Assembly (NCBI GenBank): GCA_022652945.1
Contig: JALCRV010000003.1
Span: 88,128-152,127 of the forward strand
DNA length: 64,000 bases
Source of the DNA: Bacilli bacterium
Lineage (GTDB): Bacteria > Bacillota_I > Bacilli_A > RFN20 > CAG-288
Reading direction: 5' to 3'
This document shows positions 1 through 63,538 of this stretch, one piece after another. A program made the translations under genes and the position numbers. Numbering within the stretch: position 1 is the first letter of the stretch; each line of letters begins with the position of its first letter. Under the pieces are notes generated by a model, which was given only the letters and a program-made list of their open reading frames with translations, was not told where the DNA came from and ran no database searches.

Positions 1-10
1 ACCGTTTTCT

Positions 11-703
11 TTGAACAGTTATAAAACTTTAAACAACATGGAGAAAGCTAAAGCTAATGAAGATCTCTATCGCAAAGTCATCGCCGCAGTCGGAAGAGAA
101 GAGTTTGCAAACGCTAAAGGCAAGACTGATCAATTAGTTATCAGGTGCAGCAATAAAGGCGTAGGGGAAAGGATTGCGAAAGCCAATCCTTTAAAGCTAG
201 ATTACGCTGTCATTTCCAGCCGTCAGGAGTATTATGACTATAAGATCTTTAATCAACTGCCTAGGCCTTATATGAAGGAAAGCCTGGTTAATGCTTATAC
301 GATGATGGAAGTCGTGGTGGCCTTAGCGGTATCAGCTGTTATGATCGGGACCATTACGATGGCGGTTATCGGCATTAATGCCATCAATACCAGAACGATT
401 ATTAAAGAAAAAGCCGGCTTTTATCTGAATCAGGTTTCTGAACTTTATCAATCGGAGAACAACTTAAAGAACGTGTTTTTCTCATCGGAAGACCTGAACG
501 CTGATAAAACCATATACGTTAATTACATCGGCGGTAATTTTTCTAGCGTCACTTCTATTCCGAATTCTTACTTATTTCAGTTTACCTACGACGAAGCTAC
601 TCTCCCCGTTAACGGGAAGACCGCCTACACTTTAACGATCAGCAACTTAAAAGATAGCCGGACAACACTGGTTACTAAACAAATAATCAAGGCTATCAGA
701 TAG
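11..703 (+). CDS. Pseudopilin-like or bitopic pilus-assembly protein. The frame is open to the window edge, and the true start may be the ATG at 272.
   Basis: Internal 'MKESLVNA|YTMMEVVVALAVSAVMIGTITMAVIG' resembles a prepilin leader plus a hydrophobic helix with Glu at +5. The preceding 87+ codons are in frame with no stop back to nt 2. The gene lies directly upstream of other pilin-like genes and a prepilin peptidase. Confidence 0.5.
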   Translation: MNSYKTLNNMEKAKANEDLYRKVIAAVGREEFANAKGKTDQLVIRCSNKGVGERIAKANPLKLDYAVISSRQEYYDYKIFNQLPRPYMKESLVNAYTMMEVVVALAVSAVMIGTITMAVIGINAINTRTIIKEKAGFYLNQVSELYQSENNLKNVFFSSEDLNADKTIYVNYIGGNFSSVTSIPNSYLFQFTYDEATLPVNGKTAYTLTISNLKDSRTTLVTKQIIKAIR

Positions 704-709
704 GACAAA

Positions 710-1138
710 ATGAAGGTCTCTAGACTTAAAAAGGGTCAAGTCTTAGTCTTCACCCTCGTCATTATGATGGTGGTGGGCTTTGTTTTGGCGGGAGTCGGAG
801 GTTATCTTACTTATCGAAGCAATACTAGAAACAAAAACGCTGCCTTAGATCGTGAAAAGGTCAGTTTGAGGACAGCGAGCTTAGATGTCTATCAAAGTCT
901 TTTGACATCCTCGACCGATTATATTACCGTGACGACAAACACCACGGTTGATGTGACTTTTAGCGATGATTCTTATAAAACCTTTAATGGTGGAAGTACG
1001 ACGGTTGTCCTTACTTATCAGACCGGGTATTTCACTTATGATTTAAATGGAACTTACTATAAAGGCAAAACCTCTATCGATATCAGCCTTGGGACTTTAT
1101 CATATGCGAGCTTGGTCTTAACGAGGCTTGCATCATGA
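710..1138 (+). CDS. Minor pseudopilin-like protein (PilX_N/ComGG-like N-terminus, no Glu+5)
   Basis: The N-terminus 'MKVSRLKKGQVLVFTLVIMMVVGFVLAG' has a basic leader, then Gly, then a hydrophobic helix. The gene has an ATGA overlap with the downstream peptidase gene. Confidence 0.5.
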   Translation: MKVSRLKKGQVLVFTLVIMMVVGFVLAGVGGYLTYRSNTRNKNAALDREKVSLRTASLDVYQSLLTSSTDYITVTTNTTVDVTFSDDSYKTFNGGSTTVVLTYQTGYFTYDLNGTYYKGKTSIDISLGTLSYASLVLTRLAS

Positions 1139-1971
1139 TTTTCTTCCAAGTGTTCCTTCCGTTGATCTTCTTGCTAGTTGGTTTGGCTTTAGGGTCTTTT
1201 AGCAATGTGGTTATCTATCGGGAAAGCAATCAGATCCCTCTTAATAGCCGAAAGAGAAGCTTCTGTCCTAACTGCGGGCATGAATTGAAGTGGTATGACA
1301 ATATACCCTTAATCTCATATCTGATATTAAAAGGAAAATGCCGTTACTGCCAGAAGCCGATTTCTAAGCGATACCCTTTGGTTGAATTAACGGGAGCTTT
1401 TATTTTCTTAAGCGTTTATTTTGTCTACGCTTATATCTACGACGGAACAATGTTCGTCTTCCATTATTTAGATTCTCCTCAAGCGATTATTGATTCCGTT
1501 ATTTTTTCTTTGTTGTTGCTTTTCCTTTTCGATGGTTCCTTTATCGACTATAAAACCCGGACCATTCCTTTATATATCTCGATAGGAGTGGCGTTGATGG
1601 GAATTATCAGATACGTTTTAACGGCTATCTTAACTAAAAGCTATCTTCCTTTAAATTTAATATCCGTCGGGGTTTCGCTGGTCTTTTTCTTAAGCACTTA
1701 CTTTTTAGGTATGTTGATTTACAAAAGAGAAGTCATGGGCTTAGGGGATATTATTGTCCTTGTCGGCCTGGCCTTCGGCTTTGATATCTTACGTTATGGA
1801 TTATTCTTCATTCTGATTTCTGTTTTAGCTTCCGTTATTGAATTGATTAGACAGAAAAGCAAAGGACCTAGAGAGATACCTTTTATTCCTTATATTTTTA
1901 ACGGAGTTGTTTTCTTAGTTTTCTTGGTTGAGCCGTTAGCTGGAGTCTTGCTGAATTTCCTGGGGTTTTAA
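1135..1971 (+). CDS. pilD: Prepilin peptidase (A24 family, PilD/ComC type)
   Basis: It has the N-terminal CxxC...CxxC box 'CPNCGHELKWYDNIPLISYLILKGKCRYCQKPIS'. It is polytopic, with the two Asp motifs 'FIDYKTRTIP' and 'GLGDIIVL'. Confidence 0.9.
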   Translation: MIFFQVFLPLIFLLVGLALGSFSNVVIYRESNQIPLNSRKRSFCPNCGHELKWYDNIPLISYLILKGKCRYCQKPISKRYPLVELTGAFIFLSVYFVYAYIYDGTMFVFHYLDSPQAIIDSVIFSLLLLFLFDGSFIDYKTRTIPLYISIGVALMGIIRYVLTAILTKSYLPLNLISVGVSLVFFLSTYFLGMLIYKREVMGLGDIIVLVGLAFGFDILRYGLFFILISVLASVIELIRQKSKGPREIPFIPYIFNGVVFLVFLVEPLAGVLLNFLGF

Positions 1972-1974
1972 CTC

Positions 1975-2478
1975 ATGAGAAAGATAAAAAAAGGATTTAC
2001 CTTAGTTGAGTTGATCGTCTCGATGGCCTTAGCGGCTATTTTGATGTCGACTCTGGCTTTCTTTCTTGTCTATATAACTAGAATGCAAGGATACATTCAA
2101 AACGGGGATAAGGAGTTTAAGAACGCTGATGAGTTCAGATTGGTGATTACTTCAAATATTCAGGCTAATCAGGATAAAGAATTGACCTTTTATACGAGAA
2201 CGGATGACAAGGACAATATTAAAACAACAGGTTATAATACGAAGATTTTCAGTTATGAGAGCGGGACTAAGTATTATTACTACGATGCGACAAAAGGTGA
2301 ATACGGAGTCAATAACGGATCTGGTGAGCAGTTCTCTTACCAAGCCAAGATGAACTATCTAATGTCTATCCAGCAAGTCTCGACTTATCAGATGGTGGAG
2401 ATTGACTTACGGAATCCAACTGATTTCACCCTTATTATAAGTTTCAGATTGAATATCAGCCACCTGGTAATGAGTTAA
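1975..2478 (+). CDS. Minor pilin with a prepilin-type N-terminal cleavage/methylation motif
   Basis: 'MRKIKKG|FTLVELIVSMALAAILMSTLAFFLV' is a canonical G|FTLxE motif followed by a hydrophobic helix. Confidence 0.8.
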   Translation: MRKIKKGFTLVELIVSMALAAILMSTLAFFLVYITRMQGYIQNGDKEFKNADEFRLVITSNIQANQDKELTFYTRTDDKDNIKTTGYNTKIFSYESGTKYYYYDATKGEYGVNNGSGEQFSYQAKMNYLMSIQQVSTYQMVEIDLRNPTDFTLIISFRLNISHLVMS

Positions 2479-2542
2479 TATAAACAGATTGTTATTTTTA
2501 CTGATGAATAAAAGTTATAATAAGGCACGGCAATAATAACAA

Positions 2543-5500
2543 ATGGAAAAAGAGAACGAGCGAAAATTAAATAACAAAAAGATAAAAAAGGTAGTTGTGC
2601 TTTCTTTATGCTTTCTTTTAGTCGTCGGTGGAGCGGTGGGTACCACTATATTGGTTAAAAACACTCTAGATGTAAGATCCTTTGAAGAGCAAGCGACCAG
2701 CGCTTTTAATAAGTATTACAACAATTTGGTCTTATCTGATGCGGTTACCATGGGGAATTTAAGGGTTGTTTATTCAGATGGAAATCAATACCAAGTGTTC
2801 TTGGGAAAAAACACAAGTTCTTATTTGGGAAAATGGAACAAAGAAGACAACGCCTTTTCCAATGATTCATCCAAAAACTATCTCATCGATATAAATTCTT
2901 TGGGCCAAAAAGTAATTGTAAACATCAACAAGTTTTCATCCATCACTTCAGATTATAGATCTTCAAAAAAAGATGAAATTATACCGGCCGATGAAGGCAC
3001 TCAATTAACCACAATTGATTCAGATGGAGAAATTGTTGCTAAAACTAGGCCGGTGTTTTGGGGAGCCCCCGTTTTTTATTATTCTGGTAAGGCTTTATGC
3101 AAATATAACCCAAAATATAATGACGGGACAACTGATCAAATGTTCGATACCAGATTCCAAGATTTGTTTATTAGCAACTATCCTTCTGAATCATTATATA
3201 AAGACGCCAACGGACACACATCTTGGGCTAGAGTTTTTTCATCGTCTAAAGATTGCGTAATTCATGGGGCAAAAGAAACAGATTATCCCGTTTCTGACGA
3301 TACAAATTCACTCGTTTTGCCGTCGTATGGAGATTTTTGCTCCGACTTAAGCAGTTATTTTGGTAAAAAAAAGACAACTCCATTTTCCACTGCGGAATCT
3401 TTGGAAATCGATGGAGGCATAACACATATCGGGGATGGAAGCGAAGGAGCCCTGTCTGCTTTTACTGGGTTGATGTCATTAAAAATCGATGCGACAACAG
3501 ACGAGATCCTTGATTCGTCTTATGTCTTCGGAAGGCAAACGGAGGATTTTGCATCCTCGTTAGCCAGCATTAATTTTGGAACGCCCAACGGTATCTTTTC
3601 TATATCCGACGATGCCTTTAATGGAATTAAGGCCCTGAAATCGATAGTCCTTAACTCAAACAATGCTGTCACCCAAAAATGTAAAATTGGAAAGCGAGCA
3701 TTTAAAGGCTGTACTAATTTGGAAAAGGTTAGTTTACCAGATCTCGGGTATATTTCGATTGATTCAGGTGCTTTTCTTGGATGTGATTCATTTGCAAAGA
3801 TTTATTCCGCCCCAGATTTAATGTTTGAAGTGCCTTCTAGTTTTGTATTTGCCTATGCTTCTGGAGCAAACGATGAAAATGGCTTTCCGTTCCCGAGTAA
3901 TATGTTCCTTGATTTTGCTGATGTTAACTCTGAATCGTGTAAGTCATTTATCACTAGTTATAGCGGTTACCCGAGATATTTTTATTTAGGTGCCTTAGGG
4001 ACTTTAGAAGACCGGGTCAACGATTCTCACGAAAGGGTAACTAATATCTTTTCCAATCTTATTACCGATGGGCCAGCCAAAGACGCAAAAGAGATTTATC
4101 TCCCCTCTGCTATTAAATCTGTGGCTCAGGGTAAGTCTCTTTTAATTCCTTACATACATGATGGAAAGGTTGTTGTTCCAGCTGTTCATTCTGCGTTGGC
4201 TACCGGAAGCATCGTGCTTAATCCAGATAACAAGACGACCACTCTAAAATTAACTCAAGATATAGTGCTGTACGGTTCCTTGCAAGTTGGAGGATTAACT
4301 AATTTCGCTTCATCTGTTTCTTATCAGGGGTTTGTAGTTGGAGAATATGCCGAATTAGATTTAAATGGATTCAAAGTGATTGTTGAAAGTGGTGGCTCTT
4401 TAGACATAGCTGGGAATTTAGTTGACTCCAGTCCGTCCAAGACAGGAGAAGTGATAGTTCATAACGGAGGGAAGGTCAAATCTAATTTTGCGCTATGTGA
4501 TTTTAATGGTGGAACCAACACGTTTTCGCGCTTAGGATTAGGAGTTTCGCCTTTTAATTTCTATATGATGCCTTACTTAAACGCGAAGATTCACTTTGAG
4601 TATGGAAGTTCCCTTGTTGGTTATTGTGTTTTGTTTGCGGGAGGGAACCATAATAGCATTGAAGTAAATATGATAGGCAACGAATCTGAATCATCTTTAA
4701 TCGCTTGGGATTCAGAACAGCCCACAAGTTATATTGACAGAACTCAGGAAGATTATCCGACCGTGGTTATAACTGACAAAGATTTATCGAAATACAAAGA
4801 GCATTATAATTTTTACGGCTCTTTCAAATCAACCCCGATGGATTTTGGAGTTATGTCCGGTGAAACTCTTATAGGAATATGCACCGGTTTAATTGATTTT
4901 CCTGTCTCGCCATTTATCGATGTCGCTTTTCAAGGAACGGGAACAAATGAAAAGGGAAAATTGACCATTGGTAACACTTTTATGATGTTACCTGGCTCCA
5001 AAGTTGAAATCGCGCAAAATGAAGATTTGGTTTTTGCGCCCACGCCAAGGATTGACTATTGTTTCAGAACTGGCGTTTGGGGACAACAAGAGTACAATGC
5101 GCCCTATCACTTCTTAACAACGGGTGGTATTACAGGAATATTCGACGATTTTTATCAAAGACTTGGATCGGAAAACAAAGAATCGATTCTTGATATTAAA
5201 GGAAACGTTGTTTTTAAAGAATTAAATGGTATGCCGAAATATGTTTTGGCTGGTAACGTTTTGGCTTCAGATACTACGGTTGAACAGATTTCCCAAAATG
5301 TAAGCAAGATAACTGATGAAGCGGTGGGGATTGTCCCTGAAGGTTATGACACCTTAGATATTAGCAAATACATTGTCAGCCCTTTAAAACTTAATGGTTT
5401 TGTTACTAAACTTGGGACAAATCTTAAGTTAACGGAAGATTCAGCAAGACCGGGAATCTATAACGACACCTCTACAGGGAATTGTTATTTCTTCAAACTG

Positions 5501-5833
5501 GTTAATAATTCATATCTTTGTCAGCTAGGAACCGTCCCCCCTAACTTTGATTATCCTGTAGCTGCAGGAAGATACATCAGCAATCAAGACGGAGAATTAA
5601 CCAAAGCATCAACGTACTCAGATACCCAGCACTTCCTCACTTATAATGAGCAAACATTCGTTTATTTTAATGGCTTGTTTGTGGGAATTGACCCACAAAC
5701 ACTTATATCTTCGCTAACTCGTTTCTTGGGACAAACAACAGATATAGATTTAGGCGGATCGCAAATGGTATACGACAACACCTTAAATTATTGGAAAACT
5801 CAAGTTCAGTATAGTCATCCTCCAAAAGAGTAA
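2543..5833 (+). CDS. Large (1096 aa) N-terminally anchored surface protein with BspA-type leucine-rich repeats
   Basis: It has a single N-terminal TM segment 'VVVLSLCFLLVVGGAVGTTILV'. The segment 'DDAFNGIKALKSIVLNSN...IGKRAFKGCTNLEKVSLPD...IDSGAFLGCDSFAKI' matches the AF-xGC-xxL pattern of LRR_5/BspA repeats. It is a long uninterrupted ORF in an AT-rich genome. Confidence 0.6.
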   Translation: MEKENERKLNNKKIKKVVVLSLCFLLVVGGAVGTTILVKNTLDVRSFEEQATSAFNKYYNNLVLSDAVTMGNLRVVYSDGNQYQVFLGKNTSSYLGKWNKEDNAFSNDSSKNYLIDINSLGQKVIVNINKFSSITSDYRSSKKDEIIPADEGTQLTTIDSDGEIVAKTRPVFWGAPVFYYSGKALCKYNPKYNDGTTDQMFDTRFQDLFISNYPSESLYKDANGHTSWARVFSSSKDCVIHGAKETDYPVSDDTNSLVLPSYGDFCSDLSSYFGKKKTTPFSTAESLEIDGGITHIGDGSEGALSAFTGLMSLKIDATTDEILDSSYVFGRQTEDFASSLASINFGTPNGIFSISDDAFNGIKALKSIVLNSNNAVTQKCKIGKRAFKGCTNLEKVSLPDLGYISIDSGAFLGCDSFAKIYSAPDLMFEVPSSFVFAYASGANDENGFPFPSNMFLDFADVNSESCKSFITSYSGYPRYFYLGALGTLEDRVNDSHERVTNIFSNLITDGPAKDAKEIYLPSAIKSVAQGKSLLIPYIHDGKVVVPAVHSALATGSIVLNPDNKTTTLKLTQDIVLYGSLQVGGLTNFASSVSYQGFVVGEYAELDLNGFKVIVESGGSLDIAGNLVDSSPSKTGEVIVHNGGKVKSNFALCDFNGGTNTFSRLGLGVSPFNFYMMPYLNAKIHFEYGSSLVGYCVLFAGGNHNSIEVNMIGNESESSLIAWDSEQPTSYIDRTQEDYPTVVITDKDLSKYKEHYNFYGSFKSTPMDFGVMSGETLIGICTGLIDFPVSPFIDVAFQGTGTNEKGKLTIGNTFMMLPGSKVEIAQNEDLVFAPTPRIDYCFRTGVWGQQEYNAPYHFLTTGGITGIFDDFYQRLGSENKESILDIKGNVVFKELNGMPKYVLAGNVLASDTTVEQISQNVSKITDEAVGIVPEGYDTLDISKYIVSPLKLNGFVTKLGTNLKLTEDSARPGIYNDTSTGNCYFFKLVNNSYLCQLGTVPPNFDYPVAAGRYISNQDGELTKASTYSDTQHFLTYNEQTFVYFNGLFVGIDPQTLISSLTRFLGQTTDIDLGGSQMVYDNTLNYWKTQVQYSHPPKE

Positions 5834-5921
5834 GAGATGGATTTAAATGAGGCTCTTAGAAGAGAAAGGGCATCTTTTTCTTTATTACTTTTTTGATTGT
5901 ATGATTAAAGGCGCCATTTTC

Positions 5922-5950
5922 TTAAACGAAAGAAACAATTGCGATATAAT
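5922..5950 (+). promoter_or_regulatory. Possible sigma70-type promoter for the ABC operon (TTAAAC-17-TATAAT), giving a very short leader
   Basis: A TATAAT box at 5945-5950 lies 15 nt upstream of the ATG at 5966, with a weak -35 at 5922-5927. No SD is visible before the ATG. Confidence 0.3.
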
Positions 5951-5965
5951 TAATTCATTAAAACC

Positions 5966-6682
5966 ATGCTAGAAATAAATAATTTATCTAAATCATTCCA
6001 AGACAATAAAATATTAAATGGCGTTTCTTTTAAGTTAGAGCCTTCTCACGTCTATGGTTTGATAGGAAAAAACGGAATCGGGAAAACAACGATATTGAAT
6101 TGTCTTTCCGGTGTTTTGAACTATGAAGAAGGAGAAGTGCTATTAGATGGGAAAAACATCCAGGACGATATGATGTCCTACAAGAAAAGGATTGCTTATA
6201 CTCCTGATGAATGTGCGGCTTTGGAGTATTTGACCGGGAAAGAATACCTCGAGTTTATTTATTCCGTTTATTATCCAAAAGCCAGCCAAGAAAAGAGCAA
6301 CGAATTACAAGAAAAAGCTTCTCCATTAATTAAACTTTTCGATATGGAGCCTTTTATGAACAAACTGATCCGCTCCTATTCCCACGGAACTAAACAGAAA
6401 ATATCTTTAATTGCTTCCTATCTACACGATCCGGATATCTGGTTCCTTGATGAACCGCTTCTCGGTCTGGATCCGAAGGCGACAGCGGGTTTATATAAGC
6501 TTTTCGAGGAAAGAAAAGCCAACGGGAAAATTGTTCTAGTCACAATTCACGATATCTTAGCCGCTGAAGAAATATGCGATACGGTTTTCTTATTGAAAGA
6601 TCAGCACATCTATAAGACTTATCTCGACGTAAAAGGGAACGACACCTTCCCCATCGATGCCATCAAGGAACTTAAGTCCTAA
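5966..6682 (+). CDS. ABC transporter ATP-binding protein (ABC-2-like)
   Basis: It has Walker A 'GKNGIGKTT', the signature variant 'YSHGTKQKISL' and Walker B 'IWFLDEPLLGLD'. Confidence 0.9.
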   Translation: MLEINNLSKSFQDNKILNGVSFKLEPSHVYGLIGKNGIGKTTILNCLSGVLNYEEGEVLLDGKNIQDDMMSYKKRIAYTPDECAALEYLTGKEYLEFIYSVYYPKASQEKSNELQEKASPLIKLFDMEPFMNKLIRSYSHGTKQKISLIASYLHDPDIWFLDEPLLGLDPKATAGLYKLFEERKANGKIVLVTIHDILAAEEICDTVFLLKDQHIYKTYLDVKGNDTFPIDAIKELKS

Positions 6683-6693
6683 GGCAAAAGAGC

Positions 6694-8406
6694 ATGTTTA
6701 ATACCCTTTTAAAGAAGGAACTGAGGTTCATAACTCGAAGCAGCAAGAAGAGCGGGGACCCGCTAAACATTTTAATGGATGCTCTTTTAAATATTATTTT
6801 AGTTGGGTTTCTTTCTTATCTTCTTTATTTTTTGCTAAATAAGATAAAACAGATTGGAGACGGGACTAACAATCCTTTTGGAAATGCCGATGCGGCTATT
6901 TTTGCTTTAGCTCTCGCTTTAACTCAGATCACTTACTTTATTATCTACCTTCCCCTTACTATGAAGATTCTTTATGAAGAAGATGAGAAGCTATCGATTC
7001 GGCCTTTACCAATTCCTTTGAAGACTTTGCAGTTATCTAAATTAACAGGTTTATACATTAAGTCTCTTACTGATTTTGGCTTAATGGAATTTGGATTCTT
7101 TGTCGCTTTCTTTTTTGTAAGACAAGAAAGCCTGTTGTTTTTAGTCCTAGCCTTATTTGCGGTGATTCTGTCAGCGGCGTTGCTGCTCTTTTTCGATGTT
7201 TTGTTTTCTTACCCATTTAAAAGGGTCTCCGACCGCTTAAATGAAAATACTGTAGTTCTGTTGGTGGTTTCTATTCTTATATCTGTCGGTATCGGGACTT
7301 TATATTTCTATTTGCTGATAGGCATCATCAACATTATCTCCAGTCAAAATATCAATAATGTTTTTAGCGTTGAGAGCTTAAAGGTTTTTACCTCTTTAGC
7401 CACTTATCTTTTCCCGGTTGATGGCTTTATCAGCCTTGTTCTGTTGAGAGGGAATCCTTTTATTATTATTTTATCAATCCTCATCCCTTTGCTTTCTATT
7501 CCGGGTTCCTTATTTATCAGTAAAACGTACGCTAAGATGAACTTTAAAAACGGAGATAAATCCTCAAAAGGAGTTATTATTTCTGCTGAAAAGCAGGAAT
7601 TGAAACCGGTTAAGCATCCGTTGTTATTTAAGGAACTGAGGAGAATTATCCGCAGTTCTAAAAAGACCTTTTCTTATTTTGCTCTTTTGATTTTGGTCCC
7701 GATGTTTTCATTCTACTCGGCTTTTTTGATTAACCAAGTCTTTATCTTGTTTGGCTTAAACACCGTTCGTTCCGCTCAGTCTTTAATCGATAGCGGAGCC
7801 TCTCCTCTTTTAGCAACCTTTATTTCCTTTATCCCTTCTTATCGGGTGCCGCTTATTATCTTTTTAGTTACTTTATTTACTTCTTTGATTTATTCCCCGG
7901 GAGATGAGGTGCTCTCTGGAGAAGAAAATGCTTTAGGAACCCTGCTTACTTTACCTCTCAGTTTTCATCAGCAATTAGTCTTGAAGTTTAAAGAAGGGAT
8001 CTTTTTCTCGGGGCTTACTTCTTTAATAACTTCCTTAATCCTTTTAATTTCATCTATCTTTAATCCTGTAGCCGCTTTGTTTTTCTTTCTTCTTAATTCT
8101 CTTTTTACTTGGTCTGGATACCTCTTTTCAGAAGCGCAGGGGATTAAAAATCTGGGGCTAAGTAAAGAATCCTCTTTAGGGCTTATTTATATCTTCTTAG
8201 GATCTTTATTCCTTTTGTTGTTCTCTTTGCTTCTCATTAATGCCTTACCGGCTTCTTTAACTCCTCCTTTTAGTCAACTTATCGTCGGGAGTCTTCTTAC
8301 CCTTACTTCTATAGGCTTATTATCAGTGTCTTTTTTATCTATTAAGAAAGCCTCTCTTCAGGCGGTTAATTATTTGGGGAAGAACGGAGGGAGAGAATTA
8401 GCATGA
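6694..8406 (+). CDS. Polytopic membrane protein, putative ABC exporter permease
   Basis: It is 570 aa with many hydrophobic segments. It lies 12 nt downstream of the ABC ATPase gene and has an ATGA overlap with the next gene. Confidence 0.6.
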   Translation: MFNTLLKKELRFITRSSKKSGDPLNILMDALLNIILVGFLSYLLYFLLNKIKQIGDGTNNPFGNADAAIFALALALTQITYFIIYLPLTMKILYEEDEKLSIRPLPIPLKTLQLSKLTGLYIKSLTDFGLMEFGFFVAFFFVRQESLLFLVLALFAVILSAALLLFFDVLFSYPFKRVSDRLNENTVVLLVVSILISVGIGTLYFYLLIGIINIISSQNINNVFSVESLKVFTSLATYLFPVDGFISLVLLRGNPFIIILSILIPLLSIPGSLFISKTYAKMNFKNGDKSSKGVIISAEKQELKPVKHPLLFKELRRIIRSSKKTFSYFALLILVPMFSFYSAFLINQVFILFGLNTVRSAQSLIDSGASPLLATFISFIPSYRVPLIIFLVTLFTSLIYSPGDEVLSGEENALGTLLTLPLSFHQQLVLKFKEGIFFSGLTSLITSLILLISSIFNPVAALFFFLLNSLFTWSGYLFSEAQGIKNLGLSKESSLGLIYIFLGSLFLLLFSLLLINALPASLTPPFSQLIVGSLLTLTSIGLLSVSFLSIKKASLQAVNYLGKNGGRELA

Positions 8407-10547
8407 GAAAGAAACTGATCGCTATCATCTTCCTCTTACCGATCATTATTATCGGTCTTTTATATTCCGTCTCTTATGTCCTGATCGGTAATGTAGTCGA
8501 TGAGCCGGATTCTATTTCCTTTGCTGAATCGACAGCCTTTTTACTCGTGGGTGGGGGAATGGATTTGAAAGTAACGAGCTCTCCAAATAATGAAAAGTTC
8601 GCTTCGAATATCACTTATGTTTCTGATCGAGAGGATATTCTTACCGTCAAGGACAATAAGGCTTACGGCTTAAAATCGGGATCCAGCCAAGTCACAGCTA
8701 GATATAAAGAAACCAATATCACGGATACCTTAAATGTTTTTGTCTACACCCCGCAATCTAAAGAGCTTTATATTATCGATCCCAACACTTCCTATACAGG
8801 CATAACTAGTCAAAAAGCTTACGGTGAATATGATCTAGGCGAAGGATTTATTAAAGAAAGCGGGAAGGTTTCCTTAAAGGCCTTTGATTTTGGAGCTTCT
8901 TTAACTATCGATGGTCAACTGACTCCGAGAGGTAAAGCGGAAAGAGCGAACATTATTAAAGGCGAAGGGAAGCTTTCTTACGATGAGAAGAAAGAGACGT
9001 ATAACATTGAGATCTTAGGAGGAGATGATATAACGGTTCGTTTTGTCTCCCAGGTCGGAGAAAGCTTAGATTACACAATAAAAGTCATTCCGGAGGGATT
9101 TAATGTTTATACCTACGCTCAATTGCTTTATTGCACCAACCATTCTCTAAACGGAGAGAAAGTAGTTTTAAGGAGCAATCTGGAGTCTTATTCGAATTCT
9201 TATTTAGGAGAAGAAACAAAGACCGCTAAAAAGAACACTAACCCTCTGCTTTTAACTCAGCAAGAAAAAGACAGTCTTAAGAATCTCGGACAAGAAGAGT
9301 ATCACTACCTTAAAAGGACTTACGATGAAAAAGATTATTACGTAGAATATCTGACTAGAGAATCTACTTACGATACCAGATATCTTACCAGGCTTAATAA
9401 GAGCACTAAGATCAATATCGGATTATCCTTGAAAAAAGATCTTTATGCCAATGGCTTCACTATCAATTTCCACGCTTTGACTTATCCGACTGGAGATCCG
9501 ACTCTGGTCAAAGGGGTTTATCTTCCTTCCTTAAGCGAGAACGATATCTTCCGTGGTCCTTTAGATTATTGCGGAGTTTTAGCTGATGAAAACAATCAAG
9601 CGGCTGCTTCCGTCGGAGGAGAAGATAACTGCGCTTTAGAAGTCGAAGGAGATAATTTGATCTTATCCGGGCTGATTGTTAAAAACTGTAACACCATTAC
9701 GGCTTTAGCTCAGTTAGATTATGTCGGCACGGTTATCGGGATTAAGCATCAATCGAACGTGAAGATTGAAGATTCGATAATCATGAACGGCAGGAATCTA
9801 GTCAGAGCTTTTTCTAATGATGGAGTGACAGTCTCTCATTGCTTATTAGAGTATGCTAAAGACTTCTTATTACGCCTAGGAGCCGATGAGTTTATCCAAC
9901 TGACGAAGGATGAATTCTTAAGCGGAGGAGATTATAACTATCCGGATGGCGAAAGAATCGGTAATACTCTTGAAGTAGATAACACATATTTTTATGATTC
10001 AGGCTTTTTCTCAATCGGCTTAGAATCTCATTTTAATGGGAGATATCTGTATGACAAAGACGAAATCTTCTCTTATACCTTGCCTTTAGGAGGGATTTCT
10101 AAAGGGACGGATCTGACTATTAAAGGCGATACCCGTTTTTATGACTGGAAAGATGTCGATTCGATCTCAACAGACACCATGCTGCAGGTTAAAGCTGATC
10201 TAGGCGATCTTTCCCAATATCTTTCTAATTTTGATATTGTCCCAATCATTAAAAGGGAATTAGCTAAAGAAGAGAATAAAAAGTTCGCTTTAAATGTAGA
10301 AGGAAAAACTTATCTAAATAGCGCCATAGCTGATTATGGCGGAGGTATTAATAACTCGGTAATTAACTCGAACACTGACCTTACCGCCCTTGGGCTTGCA
10401 AAGCTCGGCCCGGTGGTTTTTGATCCAGTCGAGGATAAATTCTTGGCAAATTGCGCAGGAACAGCCCCCTTTAATTTCTATTTATATCCTTCCGACAGTA
10501 AAATCACATATAAAGACACTCCCAAAACTGGTGATTTAGCTGATTAG
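8403..10547 (+). CDS. Large (714 aa) anchored surface protein with a Big_2-like Ig domain and parallel beta-helix-like repeats
   Basis: It has an N-terminal TM segment 'LIAIIFLLPIIIIGLLYSVSYVLIG'. 'ITYVSDREDILTVKDNKAYGLKSGSSQVTARYKE' looks Big_2-like. 'NLILSGLIVKNCNT...VKIEDSIIMNGRNLVRAFSNDGVTVSHCLL' looks PbH1-like. It is translationally coupled to the permease gene. Confidence 0.55.
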   Translation: MRKKLIAIIFLLPIIIIGLLYSVSYVLIGNVVDEPDSISFAESTAFLLVGGGMDLKVTSSPNNEKFASNITYVSDREDILTVKDNKAYGLKSGSSQVTARYKETNITDTLNVFVYTPQSKELYIIDPNTSYTGITSQKAYGEYDLGEGFIKESGKVSLKAFDFGASLTIDGQLTPRGKAERANIIKGEGKLSYDEKKETYNIEILGGDDITVRFVSQVGESLDYTIKVIPEGFNVYTYAQLLYCTNHSLNGEKVVLRSNLESYSNSYLGEETKTAKKNTNPLLLTQQEKDSLKNLGQEEYHYLKRTYDEKDYYVEYLTRESTYDTRYLTRLNKSTKINIGLSLKKDLYANGFTINFHALTYPTGDPTLVKGVYLPSLSENDIFRGPLDYCGVLADENNQAAASVGGEDNCALEVEGDNLILSGLIVKNCNTITALAQLDYVGTVIGIKHQSNVKIEDSIIMNGRNLVRAFSNDGVTVSHCLLEYAKDFLLRLGADEFIQLTKDEFLSGGDYNYPDGERIGNTLEVDNTYFYDSGFFSIGLESHFNGRYLYDKDEIFSYTLPLGGISKGTDLTIKGDTRFYDWKDVDSISTDTMLQVKADLGDLSQYLSNFDIVPIIKRELAKEENKKFALNVEGKTYLNSAIADYGGGINNSVINSNTDLTALGLAKLGPVVFDPVEDKFLANCAGTAPFNFYLYPSDSKITYKDTPKTGDLAD

Positions 10548-10644
10548 GGCCTTAACTTTTTTTTAAAACATAAATAGAGTAAAGTAAATACAGAACAATG
10601 AAGTGCATATATAAGGGTCGTACTCTTGGAAAGGAGGAACGCTG

Positions 10645-11877
10645 ATGCCAATTTACCATTATGTTGGTATCAACTTTCAAGGGAAGAGAATCAAAGGTGA
10701 TTTATCTTGCCAAGATCCGATTGAACTCAAAGATGAATTAAAAAAGCAGAACATCATCATCCGTTCTTATGCAGAAGCCAAAGAAAAAAGACGGAGTGAT
10801 TTTTTAGCCGTCTCTTCAAGAGTCTCCTCGAGAGAATTTGTCACATTCTGCCGTGAATTCTCGATTATGTTAAATGCGGGAGCCTCGATTGGCGACTGCC
10901 TTGATACTTTAAGAAAACAGAAGTTTGGCACCGTCTTCAAAAACACTATCTCCAGGGTTTACGAAGATGTCTTAAAAGGCGAGGAATTGTCCTCGGCTTT
11001 AAGAAAAGAGAAGAAAGGCTTCCCGGATTTCTTCGTTTCGATGGTTTATGTCGGAGAAGTCTCCGGGACCTTAGCCGGGACTTTAACTCAGGCGGCTGAT
11101 TATTATGAAAACAGCGAGAAGACAAAAGGTGAGACCCGCTCAGCTTTGATTTATCCGATTTTCTTATTGGTCGTAGTTCTCGGGATTGTCATTATGCTGA
11201 TGAATGTAGTCATCCCGGAATTTAAAGCGGTCTTATCAGAACTGGGAGCCAGCTTACCTCCGATTACGATCGGAGTTATTGCGGTTTCTGATTTCTTTGT
11301 TTCTTACGGGCTTTATGTTTTAGGGGGTATCGTTGTTTTGATCTTATTGATTTCTTTGATCAATATGACCAAGAAAGGCAAATACTGGAAAGACTGGTTA
11401 TCCTGGAACATGCCTTTATTCGGGCAGATCAAAAGAGCAACGATCGTTTCCGTCTTCTGCGATTCTTTCCAGATTATGCTTAAGTCTGGCTTAACAGTTA
11501 TCGATTGTATGCACGCTATGCCTGGGATTATCAATAACGAGTATTTCAATGACAAGTTCAAATACGCAGCGGAAGAAGTGAATAACGGGAAACGTTTAAG
11601 CAGAGCTTTAGAGAATACGGATCTATTCCCTCCGATGCTGATCCAGATGATTCAGGTCGGGGAAAACTCTTCCGATCTGTCCGGTTGTTTCTCAGCGATT
11701 GGTAAATACTACCAGACTCAGCAGAGAAACACCGTTAAGAAAGTCACTTCCTTATTAGAGCCGACGATTATTCTTTTTATGGGTGCGATTGTCTTAGTTA
11801 TTCTGTTAAGTGTCTTCTTGCCGATGTTTGAAATCTATAATTCGGTGGATAATGGAGGTAACTCAATAAACTACTAG
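10645..11877 (+). CDS. pilC: Type IV pilus / T2SS platform protein (GspF/PilC family)
   Basis: It has two GspF-type repeats ('FCREFSIMLNAGASIGDCL', 'FCDSFQIMLKSGLTVIDCM') and three TM segments. A strong RBS GGAAAGGAGG precedes the gene. Confidence 0.9.
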   Translation: MPIYHYVGINFQGKRIKGDLSCQDPIELKDELKKQNIIIRSYAEAKEKRRSDFLAVSSRVSSREFVTFCREFSIMLNAGASIGDCLDTLRKQKFGTVFKNTISRVYEDVLKGEELSSALRKEKKGFPDFFVSMVYVGEVSGTLAGTLTQAADYYENSEKTKGETRSALIYPIFLLVVVLGIVIMLMNVVIPEFKAVLSELGASLPPITIGVIAVSDFFVSYGLYVLGGIVVLILLISLINMTKKGKYWKDWLSWNMPLFGQIKRATIVSVFCDSFQIMLKSGLTVIDCMHAMPGIINNEYFNDKFKYAAEEVNNGKRLSRALENTDLFPPMLIQMIQVGENSSDLSGCFSAIGKYYQTQQRNTVKKVTSLLEPTIILFMGAIVLVILLSVFLPMFEIYNSVDNGGNSINY

Positions 11878-11878
11878 T

Positions 11879-13636
11879 ATGGATACCAATGAATATTTAG
11901 CTGAACAGTTTGTTCAGCAGGGTCTTCTCCATAGCATGGATGATGCTAAGAGCATCTTACAAGCGGCGGATAAAAAAGGCGTGCCCTTTTTTGAGTTAGC
12001 TCCAGCCTTAGGTAATCTTGAATCAGCGGAAGTCTACGCTTTAGTCGCCAGATTATTTAATATGCGTTACGTTACGGTCTCCGTCTATAACCTCGATGCA
12101 ATCGTAGTTCAGAAAGTCCCGGTCTCTTTAATTAAAGAGGGACGAGTAATTCCGATTTCTATCGAGAAAGGAGTCGTCAATATCATTGTCGATTCGCCTT
12201 ATAAAATGGCTGAAGCCCGCATTGTCGGAACCTTCTTTGAAGAACCTTACGAGGTGTCTTTAACCACGCCGGCGATGCTGGATAGTTTAATTAACAATGT
12301 TACCGGAAGAGAAAGAAGAATCAAAGCGGCTCAGGATTTCAACAAAGAAAACGCCAAGATCGAAGGCAAGGGGAATCATAACTACCGCTCCCTTGATGAC
12401 TACGTCAACGCTCCTTCTGTTCAGTTCGCTGATACTTTACTAGAAGAAGCGGTAGCTCAGAAGGCTTCCGATATTCATATCGAACCTTTGGAATCCAGCG
12501 TCCGTGTCCGCTTCAGAATCGATGGCATTCTAGTCCACCATTGCGAAATCACCGCTTCCTTATATCCAGCTGTTATCGCCCGTTATAAGATTATGGCCAA
12601 CTTGGATATCGCGGAAAGAAGACTCCCTCAGGATGGTAAGATCTCGAAAGTCTTCGACGGTAAATCCTACGATTTCCGTATTTCGACCTTGCCGAATATT
12701 TACGGTGAAAATCTCGTTATCCGTATTTTTAATACTTTAGGTTCTGAGACTAGCATCCACACTCTCGCTAACACTCCGGAAGAAGAAGTGAAGTTCTTAG
12801 AAATGTTAAAAGCCCCTCACGGAATTATCGTCTTAACTGGTCCGACCGGTTCAGGAAAGACCACTACGCTTTATACCTTCTTAAAGGAACTTAATAATCC
12901 GGGAGTTAACATCCAGACGGTTGAGGATCCGGTGGAAAATCAAATGGCCGGGATTAATCAACTGCAGGTCAATACTAAAACAGGTCTGACTTTCGGCAAC
13001 GCCTTAAGATCCATTCTCCGTCAGGATCCTAATATCATCATGATCGGAGAAATCCGTGATGAAGAGACGGCGCACATCGCTGTCCAAGCCGCTATTACCG
13101 GACATCTAGTTTTAAGTACCGTTCACACTAATGATGCGGTGACCGCCATTACTCGTTTAATCGATATGGGAGTTGAGCCTTATCTGGTGGCGGATTCTTT
13201 GGTTGGTTCTATCTCTCAACGTCTGGTCAGAAAACTCTGCCCGGATTGTAAGAAAGAACATAAGCTTACGAAGGAAGAAGCTATCTTCACCGGTTTAAAA
13301 GAAGGAACGAAGATCTATCAGCCGACCGGCTGCTCCAAGTGTAACTTCACAGGTTATTTAGGCAGAACAGCGGTTTTTGAAATGATGATTATGGATGATA
13401 AGATCAGAGAGTCCATCGATAGTAAGCATTTCTCTTTTGATGAGACTAGAAATATCGCTGAACATCAGCCAGGCTTTGTTTCCTTAAGAGAAGCGGGAGC
13501 TCAGCTTGTCGCTCAAGGTGTTACCTCAATCGAGGAATTCGATCATTTAATCAATATTATGGATATCGATGAAAAGCTGGAAGCGAATAAAAAAGAACAC
13601 GAACAAAAAGAAGAAACAGAAAAGCAGAAAGACTGA
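11879..13636 (+). CDS. pilB: Type IV pilus assembly ATPase (GspE/PilB family)
   Basis: It has Walker A 'GPTGSGKTTT', 'RQDPNIIMIGEIRD', 'TGHLVLSTVHTN' and the tetracysteine 'CPDCKKEH...CSKCNFTGY'. There is an N-terminal GSPII_E_N-like domain. The start lies 1 nt after the pilC stop. Confidence 0.93.
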   Translation: MDTNEYLAEQFVQQGLLHSMDDAKSILQAADKKGVPFFELAPALGNLESAEVYALVARLFNMRYVTVSVYNLDAIVVQKVPVSLIKEGRVIPISIEKGVVNIIVDSPYKMAEARIVGTFFEEPYEVSLTTPAMLDSLINNVTGRERRIKAAQDFNKENAKIEGKGNHNYRSLDDYVNAPSVQFADTLLEEAVAQKASDIHIEPLESSVRVRFRIDGILVHHCEITASLYPAVIARYKIMANLDIAERRLPQDGKISKVFDGKSYDFRISTLPNIYGENLVIRIFNTLGSETSIHTLANTPEEEVKFLEMLKAPHGIIVLTGPTGSGKTTTLYTFLKELNNPGVNIQTVEDPVENQMAGINQLQVNTKTGLTFGNALRSILRQDPNIIMIGEIRDEETAHIAVQAAITGHLVLSTVHTNDAVTAITRLIDMGVEPYLVADSLVGSISQRLVRKLCPDCKKEHKLTKEEAIFTGLKEGTKIYQPTGCSKCNFTGYLGRTAVFEMMIMDDKIRESIDSKHFSFDETRNIAEHQPGFVSLREAGAQLVAQGVTSIEEFDHLINIMDIDEKLEANKKEHEQKEETEKQKD

Positions 13637-13840
13637 CGAATAATAAAAAAACCTTGGTTTTGCCTCAATTAATTTTTGCTTACGGATAATTATTTTCATT
13701 AATTTTTTATATTAAATACAAAAAAGAAAACGCCTTGATATTCATTTTTTATAAAGAGGGTGAAATTGTTAATAATTTTTGATTTTTTGGATGTATTACT
13801 GATTAAAAGGTGTGGAAAAGTCCACGGTGACTTTTTGTCG

Positions 13841-13869
13841 TTGACAAAACAGGTTTAAAATTTTAACAT
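13841..13869 (+). promoter_or_regulatory. Putative promoter of the major pilin gene (TTGACA-17-TAACAT)
   Basis: A perfect -35 hexamer sits at 13841-13846 with a 17-nt spacer and a weak -10. It lies in a 297-bp AT-rich spacer. A GCAGCA/TGCTGC hairpin and the RBS AAAAGGAGGG follow. Confidence 0.35.
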
Positions 13870-13933
13870 ATTTGTACTATTAATAAAGCAGCAATCCTAA
13901 TGATGCTGCAAAAAAGGAGGGTTAACAACCTTT

Positions 13934-14506
13934 ATGAAGCTGTTTAAGAAAGCTAAGAAGGCCTTTACGTTGGTTGAGTTGATTACGGTTATGGCTATTA
14001 TCGCTGTCTTGGCTGGTGTTTCTGTCGGAGCCTACTTTGGGATTGTCGAGAACGCCAAGAAGAGCGCTGTCAGACAAGAGACCGATCAGATTAAGACTCA
14101 GTTGGTCGCTGCTACTTCTGGAGACGGATACACTGTCAGCGCTGCTACTATTAAAGAAGGTTCTGTTACTGGTTTTACAGCAGTCATGACTACTAACGAT
14201 ACGGTTACTATTACTTTAGCTCCGACCACTCTGACTGATGTCACTGTTAACGATGTTCGTTATGTCCTTGCTTATATTGTTGCTGATAACAATGGCACTC
14301 TGACAGTTGCCGGTGTTCAAGCTGTGGCCAATAGAATTAATGTTACCTTGACCACTGATTACACTGTCGATGCAACAAATAAATATGTGGCTGCAGTTAA
14401 AGGCTTTACCTGCAAGAAAGATGGCAGAGATGCTCATACTACGTTTATTACTAACGCAGTGAATGTTGCCACTGCCGCAAATTTTGACACCATCACTATT
14501 TCTTAA
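13934..14506 (+). CDS. pilA: Major type IV pilin (prepilin N-terminal cleavage/methylation domain)
   Basis: 'MKLFKKAKKA|FTLVELITVMAIIAVLAGVSVGAYFG' is followed by a T/V/A-rich globular part. The gene has a strong RBS, its own upstream spacer and a terminator directly downstream. Confidence 0.85.
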   Translation: MKLFKKAKKAFTLVELITVMAIIAVLAGVSVGAYFGIVENAKKSAVRQETDQIKTQLVAATSGDGYTVSAATIKEGSVTGFTAVMTTNDTVTITLAPTTLTDVTVNDVRYVLAYIVADNNGTLTVAGVQAVANRINVTLTTDYTVDATNKYVAAVKGFTCKKDGRDAHTTFITNAVNVATAANFDTITIS

Positions 14507-14532
14507 TCCTAGTCTTCCTTAAATCTAAAGAA

Positions 14533-14559
14533 AGCTCCGCTGAAAGGCGGGGCTTTTTT
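14533..14559 (+). terminator. Rho-independent terminator between the convergent pilin and GH3 genes
   Basis: AGCTCCGC-tgaaag-GCGGGGCT hairpin followed by TTTTTT. Confidence 0.7.
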
Positions 14560-14592
14560 AGTGTCATCAATGAATTAATAAGGCTGGATTAT

Positions 14593-17019: not shown

Positions 17020-17196
17020 TTGGATATAGTTTAGCATTGTTGACGATATGAATAAAAGAATTTTCAAATGGCTCTTTATAGCCTATTTAAGGTCTCGGCT
17101 CAAAGGTTGATGCTCTTTTGGATTTTTATTTTCCTTTTTGGTGGTTTTAGAACAGTTTTAATATGGTAAAATCTTAATTAACAGGTATACAACAAA

Positions 17197-19504: not shown

Positions 19505-19522
19505 TCTTAAGTTTCTACCTTC

Positions 19523-19549
19523 AGCCGCTTAATTTTAAGCGGCTTTTTT
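19523..19549. terminator. Bidirectional rho-independent terminator (galM / vsr)
   Basis: A perfect 10-bp stem AGCCGCTTAA-tt-TTAAGCGGCT is followed by TTTTTT. Confidence 0.8.
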
Positions 19550-19979
19550 ATTCTTCACCATAAGGATTTTTAGCTGTTTTATAGGCTTCTTCGACAATAT
19601 CAGCTAGACGGGAAACGTCTTTATTGATGTCATTTTCCCAGAGGCGGATAACTAGATAACCTTCCTGCTGAAGTTTTAAGGTGTATTCATTATCGCGTTT
19701 CATGTTGGTTTCGATTTTCTTTAACCAGTAAGAACGGTGGGATTTGATATCTTTTTTTCTGTTTTCCCAATCTCGGCCATGCCAGAAGTCTCCATCGACA
19801 AAAATAACGATCTTTTCCTTAGGGAAGGCGATATCAGGGTGACCGAGTATTTTCCCGTAGTTAACGCGATAACGGAGACCACGACTAAATAAAGCCTTCC
19901 TAAGCTTTAATTCCGGATTGGTGTTCTTACCTCTGATTAAGGCCATTTCGGCGCTGATTTGTTCTTTTGATCTTTTCAT
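19548..19979 (-). CDS. vsr: Very-short-patch repair endonuclease (Vsr)
   Basis: 'ISAEMALIRGKNTNPELKLRKALFSRGLRYRVN...HPDIAFPKEKIVIFVDGDFWHG...YWLKKIETNMKRD...GYLVIRLWE' matches the Vsr pattern. Confidence 0.85.
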   Translation of the reverse strand: MKRSKEQISAEMALIRGKNTNPELKLRKALFSRGLRYRVNYGKILGHPDIAFPKEKIVIFVDGDFWHGRDWENRKKDIKSHRSYWLKKIETNMKRDNEYTLKLQQEGYLVIRLWENDINKDVSRLADIVEEAYKTAKNPYGEE

Positions 19980-21157: not shown

Positions 21158-21241
21158 TTTTTAGGCATTAATTATAATTGTTGTCAACAAATCACTTTAG
21201 ATTTAGAATACTTTTATATGTTTAGAAAGAAGGAAAAACCA

Positions 21242-41355: not shown

Positions 41356-41366
41356 ATGGAGGGTTT

Positions 41367-42542: not shown

Positions 42543-42561
42543 TTAAAAGCAACATAATTCC

Positions 42562-43779: not shown

Positions 43780-43783
43780 TTAC

Positions 43784-49617: not shown

Positions 49618-49649
49618 ACACTTCTTCATTTTAAAAGGAGATAGAGGAA

Positions 49650-50372: not shown

Positions 50373-50376
50373 TAAC

Positions 50377-63518: not shown

Positions 63519-63538
63519 GATAAGAACAGCGACAGCCT

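Follow-up and report, generated by a model that had tools for sequence, protein, structure and literature searches.

At the start of a 64,000-nucleotide stretch of a Bacilli bacterium contig (JALCRV010000003.1), called here the window, eleven plus-strand open reading frames (ORFs) with narrow gaps between them occupy positions 1 to 14,506 (coordinates taken from a preliminary description of this DNA). Judged by their sequence, this region and about 1.6 kb of DNA preceding the window form a genuine type IV filament locus, which belongs to an uncultured Bacilli lineage of the gut, and we lean, if only slightly, towards reading it as an adhesive pilus locus interleaved or fused with a module made of a giant surface protein and an ATP-binding cassette (ABC) transporter. 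The features of the type IV filament superfamily are present, namely class III pilins, an A24 prepilin peptidase, and a GspE/PilB ATPase with a GspF/PilC platform protein. Profile hidden Markov model (HMM) searches confirmed the A24 peptidase, PilC, PilB, leucine-rich repeat (LRR) protein, and ABC ATPase of the preliminary description, and the coordinates agree with its account of tight packing on a single strand, overlaps (4 nt at both 1135/1138 and 8403/8406), pilC ahead of pilB, and a 297-nt spacer before the last pilin gene.

The assembly machine and the small pilins are encoded by the following genes (lengths in amino acids, aa; a downward arrow marks the cleavage position of the class III motif).
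1135 to 1971, plus strand: prepilin peptidase PilD, family A24, with an N-terminal CxxC...CxxC domain (A24_N_bact 1.8e-31, 108 bits; Peptidase_A24 6.5e-08, 33 bits).
10645 to 11877, plus strand: platform protein PilC/GspF (T2SSF 8.3e-59, 197 bits; GspF 311, PilC 251, and ComGB 160 bits).
11879 to 13636, plus strand: extension ATPase PilB/GspE, long form, with an MshEN-like N-terminal domain (T2SSE 1.8e-129, 432 bits; MshEN 3.6e-06).
710 to 1138, plus strand: 142-aa bitopic protein with the N-terminus KKG↓QVLVF, no Glu5, one hydrophobic helix, and no Pfam match.
1975 to 2478, plus strand: 167-aa minor pilin, KKG↓FTLVE (N_methyl 7.6e-08; TIGR02532 2.2e-06; weak ComGF/ComGG matches).
13934 to 14506, plus strand: 190-aa candidate major pilin, KKA↓FTLVE (TIGR02532 7.7e-06).

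Both PilD matches exceed the gathering scores, and the translation shows FIDYKTRTIP and GLGD. The PilB translation carries the Walker A sequence GPTGSGKTTT plus the tetracysteine CPDC...CSKC and scores 532 bits with the GspE model, 518 with PilB, and 273 with ComGA (cut-off 300). With PilC at 160 bits against ComGB, where the cut-off is 240, neither equivalog threshold of the competence proteins is reached at this locus. When all six frames of the 64-kb window were scanned with a regular expression for the class III motif, there were exactly three matches, starting at 293, 1993, and 13961. All of them lie within the locus, and the pattern is not a matter of chance. The preliminary description had counted four prepilin-like N-termini; those of the genes at 1975 and 13934 stand, the one placed at 272 is internal to its protein (A↓YTMME starts at 293), and the protein at 710 is pilin-like, if unproven. 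In related loci (designated by L numbers), the slot of this 142-aa protein, after the fusion gene described below and ahead of pilD, is kept in six lineages, with K8, G9, and L12 invariant and the K-G pair preceding the hydrophobic helix, and we regard it as a candidate minor pilin of the GspK/PilX/ComGG type. A start of the 167-aa minor pilin at window position 2023 was discarded, since the N_methyl motif would be lost. Orthologues of the 190-aa pilin have 194 aa in L082, where the order is pilB, two other genes, and then the pilin, and 180 aa in L171, where the gene comes straight after pilB.

The most novel element of the locus is its first ORF.
1 to 703, plus strand: 3' part (residues ~203 to 435) of a 435-aa gene, with an internal class III motif A↓YTMMEVVVALAV from 293; a PilM/GspL-like domain plus a complete minor-pilin module.

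This ORF had been taken for a small pilin with A↓YTMME at its N-terminus. Its frame is open to window position 2, and the full gene, found at 994 to 2301 of L081, encodes 435 aa, with the motif at residue ~300 and the 5' half upstream of the window. The motif at that residue, K-(G/A)-(F/Y)-(T/S)-L-x-E-V-V-V-S-L-A-V, is common to six lineages, and the Glu at +5 is the sole invariant column in an alignment of 23 family members. All of the distant members tested have an internal N_methyl match at residues ~285 to 340, or at 527 in a longer form. A large-database search with the window fragment returned one partial match, and a profile built from relatives was used instead. The full HMMER scan of 1.84 billion representatives yielded ~25 to 30 full-length clusters at 50% identity, as well as ~85 ordinary pilins of 120 to 200 aa that align from their own residues 1 to 16 to profile positions 293 to 420, globular part included. 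Among PDB sequences, mature pilins align from residue 1 to profile position 303. Because the internal motif is conserved and both stand-alone and PDB pilins align along it, the C-terminal third of the protein is, by homology, a genuine pseudopilin. The possibility that the pilin part is a separate gene starting at Met 275 was rejected: the frame stays open, and six lineages and ~25 further clusters, several of them without a Met near the motif, conserve the upstream part.

The structure model of the 435-aa protein has a mean predicted local distance difference test score (pLDDT) of 54; its N-terminal domain (~290 residues) reaches ~60 to 87 and has an actin-like order of secondary-structure elements. 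The nine best Foldseek matches of this domain are all PilM (3jc8 chain Ma, 5eox, 5eoy, 5eq6, 5eou, and 2ych; E 5e-10 to 2e-08), followed by FtsA and then by cytoplasmic EpsL/GspL (1yf5, 4pht, and 5tkw). Prepilin leader peptides are cytoplasmic, and a PilM-like domain in the leader position would therefore be topologically consistent. These comparisons establish a family of predicted PilM-like::pilin fusions in which the PilM-like domain sits in the place of the leader peptide. No description of such a fusion was found in the open-access literature searched, which is absence of evidence. A PilM gene was also sought in the Agathobacter locus L005 as a bridge between profiles and was not found there.

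The fusion changes the earlier statement that PilM, PilN, PilO, and PilT are missing. Extension upstream, proposed as a check, supplies the PilM-like part of the 435-aa gene, so PilM is not absent, at least at the level of the fold. The rest of the statement holds: Pfam-type profile searches assigned no gene of the locus, or of the related loci, to the PilN or PilO families, the 64-kb window contains no PilT and no second PilB/PilT-like ATPase, and no PilT appears in the gene listings of the related loci L081, L082, L086/L089-94, and L171.

The second distinctive component is a giant surface protein, one of two in the preliminary description, with four features to be located.
2543 to 5833, plus strand: 1096-aa giant surface protein (LRR_5 1.7e-09; one N-terminal hydrophobic helix; no N_methyl match).
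2582 to 3133 (residues 14 to 197), plus strand: pilin-derived module without a cleavage motif, by homology to the upstream prepilin.
3554 to 3808 (residues 338 to 422), plus strand: BspA-type LRR (LRR_5).
4310 to 5122 (residues ~590 to 860), plus strand: shared uncharacterised domain, termed GD, by homology to giant pilins.

Just upstream of the window, on the divergent strand, lies the gene of a 446-aa LRR modular prepilin that starts MKNSKFEKA↓FTLVELIVV. Residues 14 to 197 of the giant align with residues 13 to 188 of this prepilin, hydrophobic helix included (32% identity, E 2e-29), and in the alignment the prepilin KAFTLVE faces NNKKIKK, so that A(-1), F(+1), and E(+5) are replaced by N/K residues. 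The giant also aligns with the N_methyl plus LRR_5 pilin L171_564 (564 aa) at 25% identity over 549 residues (E 4e-30). Its orthologues of 1085 aa (L082) and 1081 aa (L171) likewise lack G/A-F-T-L-x-E, and because they share the loss, it is a stable feature and not the sign of a pseudogene. In L169/L170, the same slot after the minor pilin holds a 1007-aa protein with a canonical NKA↓FTLVE, and true giant pilins occur in L001 (970 aa) and L002 (741 aa). These alignments demonstrate, in terms of descent as read from sequence, that the 1096-aa giant is pilin-derived, a paralogue of true LRR modular pilins whose cleavage motif has been lost. Of the hallmarks of modular pilins, it has the pilin module and the unrelated functional modules and lacks the class III signal peptide. 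In L082-84, the gene corresponding to the 446-aa LRR pilin is broken into two ORFs (L082 15696 to 17345), one for a 214-aa prepilin and the other for a 312-aa LRR-like product; the break reflects either a frameshift or pseudogene, or else two genuine genes.

Between the giant and the pilC-pilB pair lie three genes that we call the cassette.
5966 to 6682, plus strand: ABC transporter ATPase, DrrA/GldA/CcmA-like, ABC-2 exporter type (ABC_tran 8.4e-27).
6694 to 8406, plus strand: 570-aa fused (duplicated) polytopic permease, ~10 to 12 hydrophobic segments (N-half versus C-half, E 1.4e-05).
8403 to 10547, plus strand: 714-aa membrane-anchored extracytoplasmic protein with an N-terminal helix, two immunoglobulin (Ig)-like domains, and a beta-rich C-terminal part.

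The ATPase matches DrrA at 4e-42 (144 bits, cut-off 312) and GldA at 1.7e-33, both under the equivalog cut-offs. The permease itself has no Pfam match, and its relatives match ABC2_membrane_4 weakly (E 0.0014) and 12TM_1. The 714-aa protein had been called a Big_2/beta-helix protein; no Pfam family is found on the protein itself, and the label finds support at the level of family and structure. Weak Pfam matches to Big_2 occur in 5 and to Beta_helix in 2 of 19 relatives, and the AlphaFold2 model (pLDDT 87, predicted template modelling score 0.88) is Ig-like, with Big_2 and S-layer Ig domains dominating the Foldseek matches in both libraries. A match to a pectin-lyase-fold phage protein (574 aligned columns, E 3e-05) is the sole handle on the fold of the C-terminal part, which on the model is probably beta-helical. 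A NosD-like identity finds no support in sequence: the 19 members gave no NosD Pfam match and the PDB no sequence match save the Big_2 domain. PDB sequence searches with the 714-aa, permease, 435-aa, and 1096-aa proteins and their profiles yielded LRR, Big_2, and pilin N-termini and nothing more.

Homologues of the 714-aa protein (26 from databases and 80 further loci from a metagenome scan) were tallied first as 90 loci in 40 sequence clusters, taken as lineages. In 23 of the 25 clusters whose upstream DNA is long enough, the 714-family gene is immediately preceded by genes for an ABC ATPase and a 520- to 570-aa permease; in the other two, one of the pair was detected. Within the fetched ±10 kb, pilB, pilC, or pilD was present in 5 of 22 clusters with adequate flanks and none of them in the remaining 17. 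As far as gene order can show it, ABC-permease-714 is thus established as an autonomous three-gene cassette of gut Bacilli, found in ~40 lineages. This autonomy contradicts the idea of a locus built around an exporter, and the 714-aa protein behaves as a fixed third component of the transporter, not as a displayed or released giant cargo. No description of the cassette was found in the open-access literature searched, again absence of evidence.

The cassettes fall into a short-form subfamily, which includes the window, and a majority "long-form" subfamily (~800 aa), in which the order is a ~420-aa protein, ABC ATPase, permease, ~810-aa protein, ~370-aa Flg_new lipoprotein, ~227-aa protein, and a variable giant of 800 to 2900 aa. 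The ~420-aa protein, which has no family matches (49 loci), and the Flg_new lipoprotein (64 loci), encoded about 2 kb upstream and 0 to 2 kb downstream of the 714-family gene, respectively, are conserved partners of the long form (L095-L167) and do not occur in the clade of the window. In L149 (13295 to 18798) and L105 (13306 to 18104), the ~227-aa protein and the giant close the N-terminal helix with (G/A)-F-(S/A)-S-W-(T/L/S)-I, which is not a class III motif and may be a distinct sorting or cleavage signal.

The GD links the giant with the cassette across both subfamilies. This ~270-aa domain of the 1096-aa protein has a homologous counterpart in the true giant pilin L002_741 (E 5e-08) and another in long-form giants (L149_1607 versus L085_810, E 3e-09). 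An HMM built from eight such regions detected it in giant ORFs at 46 cassette loci (lowest E 1e-101) and in the stand-alone giant pilin of L169/L170; it matched nothing else in the window and none of 78 PilB-anchored control loci from other phyla. A GD giant lies within the fetched flanks of the cassette in 20 of 29 evaluable lineages, in both subfamilies. The GD has no Pfam match and no PDB sequence match. A GD giant is the cassette's more regular partner, irrespective of how its N-terminus is anchored. Because the domain connects the giant of the window, the giant pilins, and the giants of long-form cassettes, the 8-kb stretch at 2543 to 10547 is, to judge from homology, a coherent module of giant plus ABC cassette that is widespread on its own.

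How this module meets the pilus genes varies among the related loci (percentages are identities of the 714 homologue; numbers without a name are protein lengths; horizontal arrows give orientation).
Window/L081: ←LRR pilin 446; PilM::pilin-142-PilD-167-LRR1096; ABC-permease-714-PilC-PilB; pilin 190.
L082-84 (66%): ABC-permease-714-PilC-PilB-pilin-312-pilin-PilM::pilin-139-PilD-167-LRR1085; the same genes with two blocks swapped.
L171 (61%): giant pilin→ ←LRR1081 ←LRR pilin 564; ABC-permease-711-PilC-PilB-pilin.
L169/L170: PilM::pilin-137-PilD-169-giant pilin, a block on its own; a shared organism with L171 is not established.
L086/L089-94 (32%): ABC-permease-703-pilin-pilin-PilM::pilin-137-PilD-PilC-PilB.
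L001/L002: (permease fragment, E 2e-04)-714 homologue-PilM::pilin-143-PilD-pilin ←giant pilin ←pilin→ PilC-PilB.
L173: ABC-permease-683-pilin-346-pilin.
L174: 674-aa N_methyl giant-ABC-permease-656.
L085: ABC-permease-739, convergent with an 810-aa protein.

The 810-aa protein of L085 is a full-length homologue of the L002 giant pilin (E 1e-39) with a degenerate KKGKFTWVH N-terminus. In the short-form subfamily, pilin or pilin-derived genes stand beside the cassette in all eight lineages, with at least three kinds of junction partner (pilC, a pilin gene, and the PilM::pilin gene). Three species-level lineages (window, L082, and L171) retain the block ABC-permease-714-pilC-pilB-pilin, and the PilD block moves or separates. 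Gene order therefore establishes a tight linkage of the cassette to pilus genes within one clade. That the extra genes are no random insertion is borne out by the survival of this six-gene block through rearrangement and by the pilin neighbours of all eight lineages. In the neighbourhood comparison proposed earlier, the cassette stays beside pilC-pilB in the window, L082, and L171; conversely, the related pilus locus L003/L004, known from short contigs, has PilD-PilC-PilB contiguous with nothing between. An ORF upstream in L003 was considered as a member of the 714 family, and comparison showed otherwise. The genes that flank the pilus blocks differ completely among L082, L169, and L171, and the blocks have therefore moved. 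After the giant pilin gene of L169/L170 there is a Phd/YoeB toxin-antitoxin pair (L169 16404 to 16930), and after pilB in L002 a Schlafen AlbA_2/HATPase_c_4 protein (L002 11909 to 13378).

Consensus scans found two candidate transcription boundaries in the locus.
5852 to 5871, plus strand: terminator-like hairpin separating the giant-protein gene from the ABC genes.
13811 to 13869, plus strand: terminator-like hairpin (13811 to 13826), then a promoter-like site with a perfect TTGACA (13841 to 13869), ahead of the pilin gene.

These putative signals are weak; their positions coincide with the borders of the blocks that are permuted in relatives (L082). The same scan showed no terminator-like site between the 714 gene and pilC, an Rfam search of the window found no RNA family, and the guanine-plus-cytosine (GC) content of the locus resembles that of the flanking DNA.

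In the adhesive pilus locus that we favor, PilD would process the prepilins, PilB would dock through the PilM-like domain, as GspL docks GspE, and PilB and PilC would assemble a probably non-retractile adhesive fibre with LRR modular pilins at its tip or along its shaft. We infer an adhesive fibre because LRR modules are present and ComGA/ComGB equivalogs and PilT are not. The 1096-aa paralogue, lacking G/A(-1), F(+1), and E(+5), would probably remain membrane-anchored and act at the surface as an adhesin of pilin-like shape. The ABC cassette, presumably co-expressed with pilC-pilB in this clade, would probably serve the biogenesis, maturation, or surface handling of the giants, or of their ligand or glycan, and not polymerisation. 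Part of the idea first put forward for this DNA survives in such a scheme, namely an unusual type IV filament locus with a giant tied to the pilus by descent; the exporter-centred design and the absence of PilM do not.

Several points weigh against this reading. No sequence-level match of the 435-aa protein to PilM was obtained, even by the full HMMER scan and the PDB sequence search, so the assignment stays structural and leans on a low-confidence model (mean pLDDT 54, template modelling scores of ~0.3). The beta-helix assignment of the 714-aa protein is weak as well. The control loci for the GD come from other phyla, and its enrichment may be partly lineage-specific. PilN, PilO, and PilT could sit elsewhere in the genome. 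Adjacency may reflect co-regulated surface structures and not a common pathway, and the PilGHI precedent of Myxococcus xanthus, where piliation itself can depend on an ABC system, would favor a more integrated apparatus.

Two non-exclusive proposals go further, and taken jointly we hold them possible, if on the doubtful side. In the first, the PilM::pilin protein is a PilD substrate or an uncleaved tether: a folded ~290-aa PilM-like assembly factor may serve as the leader, freed by PilD on the cytoplasmic side of the membrane while the minor pilin enters the fibre, or else the uncleaved fusion may tether a PilM ring to the base of the filament. In the second, the cassette and the GD giant form an undescribed system of surface-protein biogenesis, which in one clade may have been coupled to the type IV pilus through pilin N-termini on the giants.

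An integrated apparatus, in which the ABC and 714 proteins are accessory to the type IV machine, as PilGHI are, and help to assemble a fibre that displays or releases the giants, seems to us unlikely. Such an apparatus would agree with the conserved unit ABC-permease-714-pilC-pilB-pilin of three lineages, with a gap of just 97 nt and no terminator-like site between the 714 gene and pilC, with the pilin or pilin-derived neighbours of all eight subfamily lineages, and with the true prepilin N-termini that GD giants often have; PilG, PilH, and PilI, moreover, are reported to be indispensable in M. xanthus for the translocation of pilin (PMC3724824). However, most cassette lineages have no pilB, pilC, or pilD within 10 kb, PilD-PilC-PilB are contiguous in L003/L004 with no cassette between them, the PilD block and giant pilin of L169/L170 stand alone, and the residues required for cleavage by PilD and for incorporation are missing from the 1096-aa protein.

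Still less probable is a mere neighbourhood, with an unrelated ABC-2 exporter of a drug, peptide, lipid, or glycan that has no tie to the pilus or the giants. The adjacency of pilin or pilin-derived genes in eight of eight subfamily lineages, through three different junction partners, would then be hard to account for, as would the GD giant beside the cassette in 20 of 29 lineages of both subfamilies; furthermore, a large surface-exposed partner like the 714 family is atypical of simple efflux pumps. Set against these points are the autonomy and wide distribution of the cassette, an ATPase that is nearest to generic DrrA/GldA/CcmA-type exporters, the terminator-like site between the cassette and the giant-protein gene, and the possibility that the genomes are small (one related contig has 1.1 Mb), from which close operon packing would follow. 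Finally, a competence-type (Com-like) DNA-uptake pilus of monoderm Bacilli, with four minor pilins, no PilT or PilNO, and the LRR and ABC genes as passengers, is quite improbable: PilT, PilN, and PilO were not found in the window, the small pilins give weak ComGE/ComGF/ComGG matches, and Com pili are described without PilMNO and PilT (PMC10191384), but PilB, with its long N-terminal domain, and PilC score far better as GspE/PilB and GspF proteins and miss the ComGA and ComGB cut-offs, a PilM-like domain is predicted, and the modular LRR pilins point to adhesion.

Among known systems, the type IVa pili of monoderms (Streptococcus sanguinis and Clostridia; PMC6916266, PMC8179133) are the closest machine, likewise without a secretin. 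Large pilins with functional modules grafted onto the pilin module are an established and diverse class (Raynaud et al. 2021, PMC8179133), and the present loci share such adhesin-grafted forms, with N_methyl plus LRR_5 proteins of 446 and 564 aa and N_methyl giants of 741 to 1121 aa. In contrast to those pili, no PilT, PilN, or PilO was found in 64 kb here, the PilM-like domain is fused to a minor pilin and is not a separate protein, one giant paralogue lacks the class III motif, and an ABC cassette lies upstream of pilC. Fusion of PilM to a membrane partner is known from PulL and from the PilMN of Clostridioides difficile (PMC10191384, PMC6916266). On the model, the 435-aa protein resembles GspL/PulL and PilMN in its ~290-aa actin-like cytoplasmic domain, single membrane helix, and ~130 aa outside, but its membrane and external part is a full pseudopilin with canonical K-G↓F-T-L-x-E and not of the PilN type. 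By analogy it would work like GspL/PilMN while standing outside that family, because its membrane part is a pilin.

With regard to the cassette, PilGHI of M. xanthus are reported to be needed for pilus biogenesis (PMC3724824, citing Wu et al. 1998). Compared by architecture, both systems have genes for an ABC ATPase, a permease, and one further protein amid those of a type IV pilus, but the host of PilGHI is a diderm and the present cassette mostly occurs without pilus genes. The likeness to two other systems is one of architecture and functional analogy. NosDFY, where NosD is a beta-helix protein, and GldAFG are ABC-2 exporters with a large extracytoplasmic accessory protein. The cassette likewise combines an ABC-2-type ATPase, matching the GldA model at 1.7e-33, with a polytopic permease and a large external beta-rich partner. 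It differs from them in its duplicated permease with 12 transmembrane segments and in a partner that has an N-terminal anchor plus two Ig-like domains and no sequence match to NosD or to any solved beta-helix protein.

The DNA of the locus is also present on metagenome contigs of 31 kb and 192 kb. The nearest relatives of PilB, at 54 to 62% identity, come from "uncultured bacterium" bins and from metagenome-assembled genomes labelled Candidatus Onthovivens or "Bacilli bacterium"; NCBI places Onthovivens in Bacilli, and one distant member of the 714 family is labelled Acholeplasmatales. Related loci come chiefly from human-gut and rumen-type metagenomes. Right after the pilin gene, the window continues (14593 to 19979) with genes for a GH3 beta-glucosidase-like protein on the minus strand, a GH1 protein, an aldose 1-epimerase, and a Vsr-type endonuclease. 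A PreP-like M16 peptidase (21218 to 24136) and a Tex protein (36539 to 38686) are of housekeeping type and fit a chromosomal and not a mobile-element context. Same-strand polysaccharide-synthesis genes at 39020 to 51399 (two GT4 glycosyltransferases, a radical SAM/SPASM protein, a Wzx-type flippase, a pyruvyl transferase, and an epimerase), with a GC content of ~33% against ~40%, are possibly a horizontally acquired surface-glycan cluster. Towards the end of the window (62001 to 64000), GC rises to 50%, and an 852-aa ORF at 60867 to 63425 has no Pfam match at 1e-05.

The type IV filaments of monoderm and wall-reduced gut bacteria are little explored, and two elements described here, the PilM::pilin fusion and the system of cassette and giant, could be new in kind if confirmed. 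With its PilM-like domain physically linked to a minor pilin across an intact cleavage motif, the fusion family gives direct access to the coupling of ATPase and fibre, and among prepilin peptidase substrates the fusion would be out of the ordinary. It is plausible that the LRR pilins and the pilin-derived LRR giant are adhesins for binding a host or partner. The ABC/giant module is common in human-gut and rumen metagenomes, and its permease, 714-aa partner, and GD have no family annotation above threshold. To understand this module would be to learn how the principal surface adhesins of these bacteria are made.

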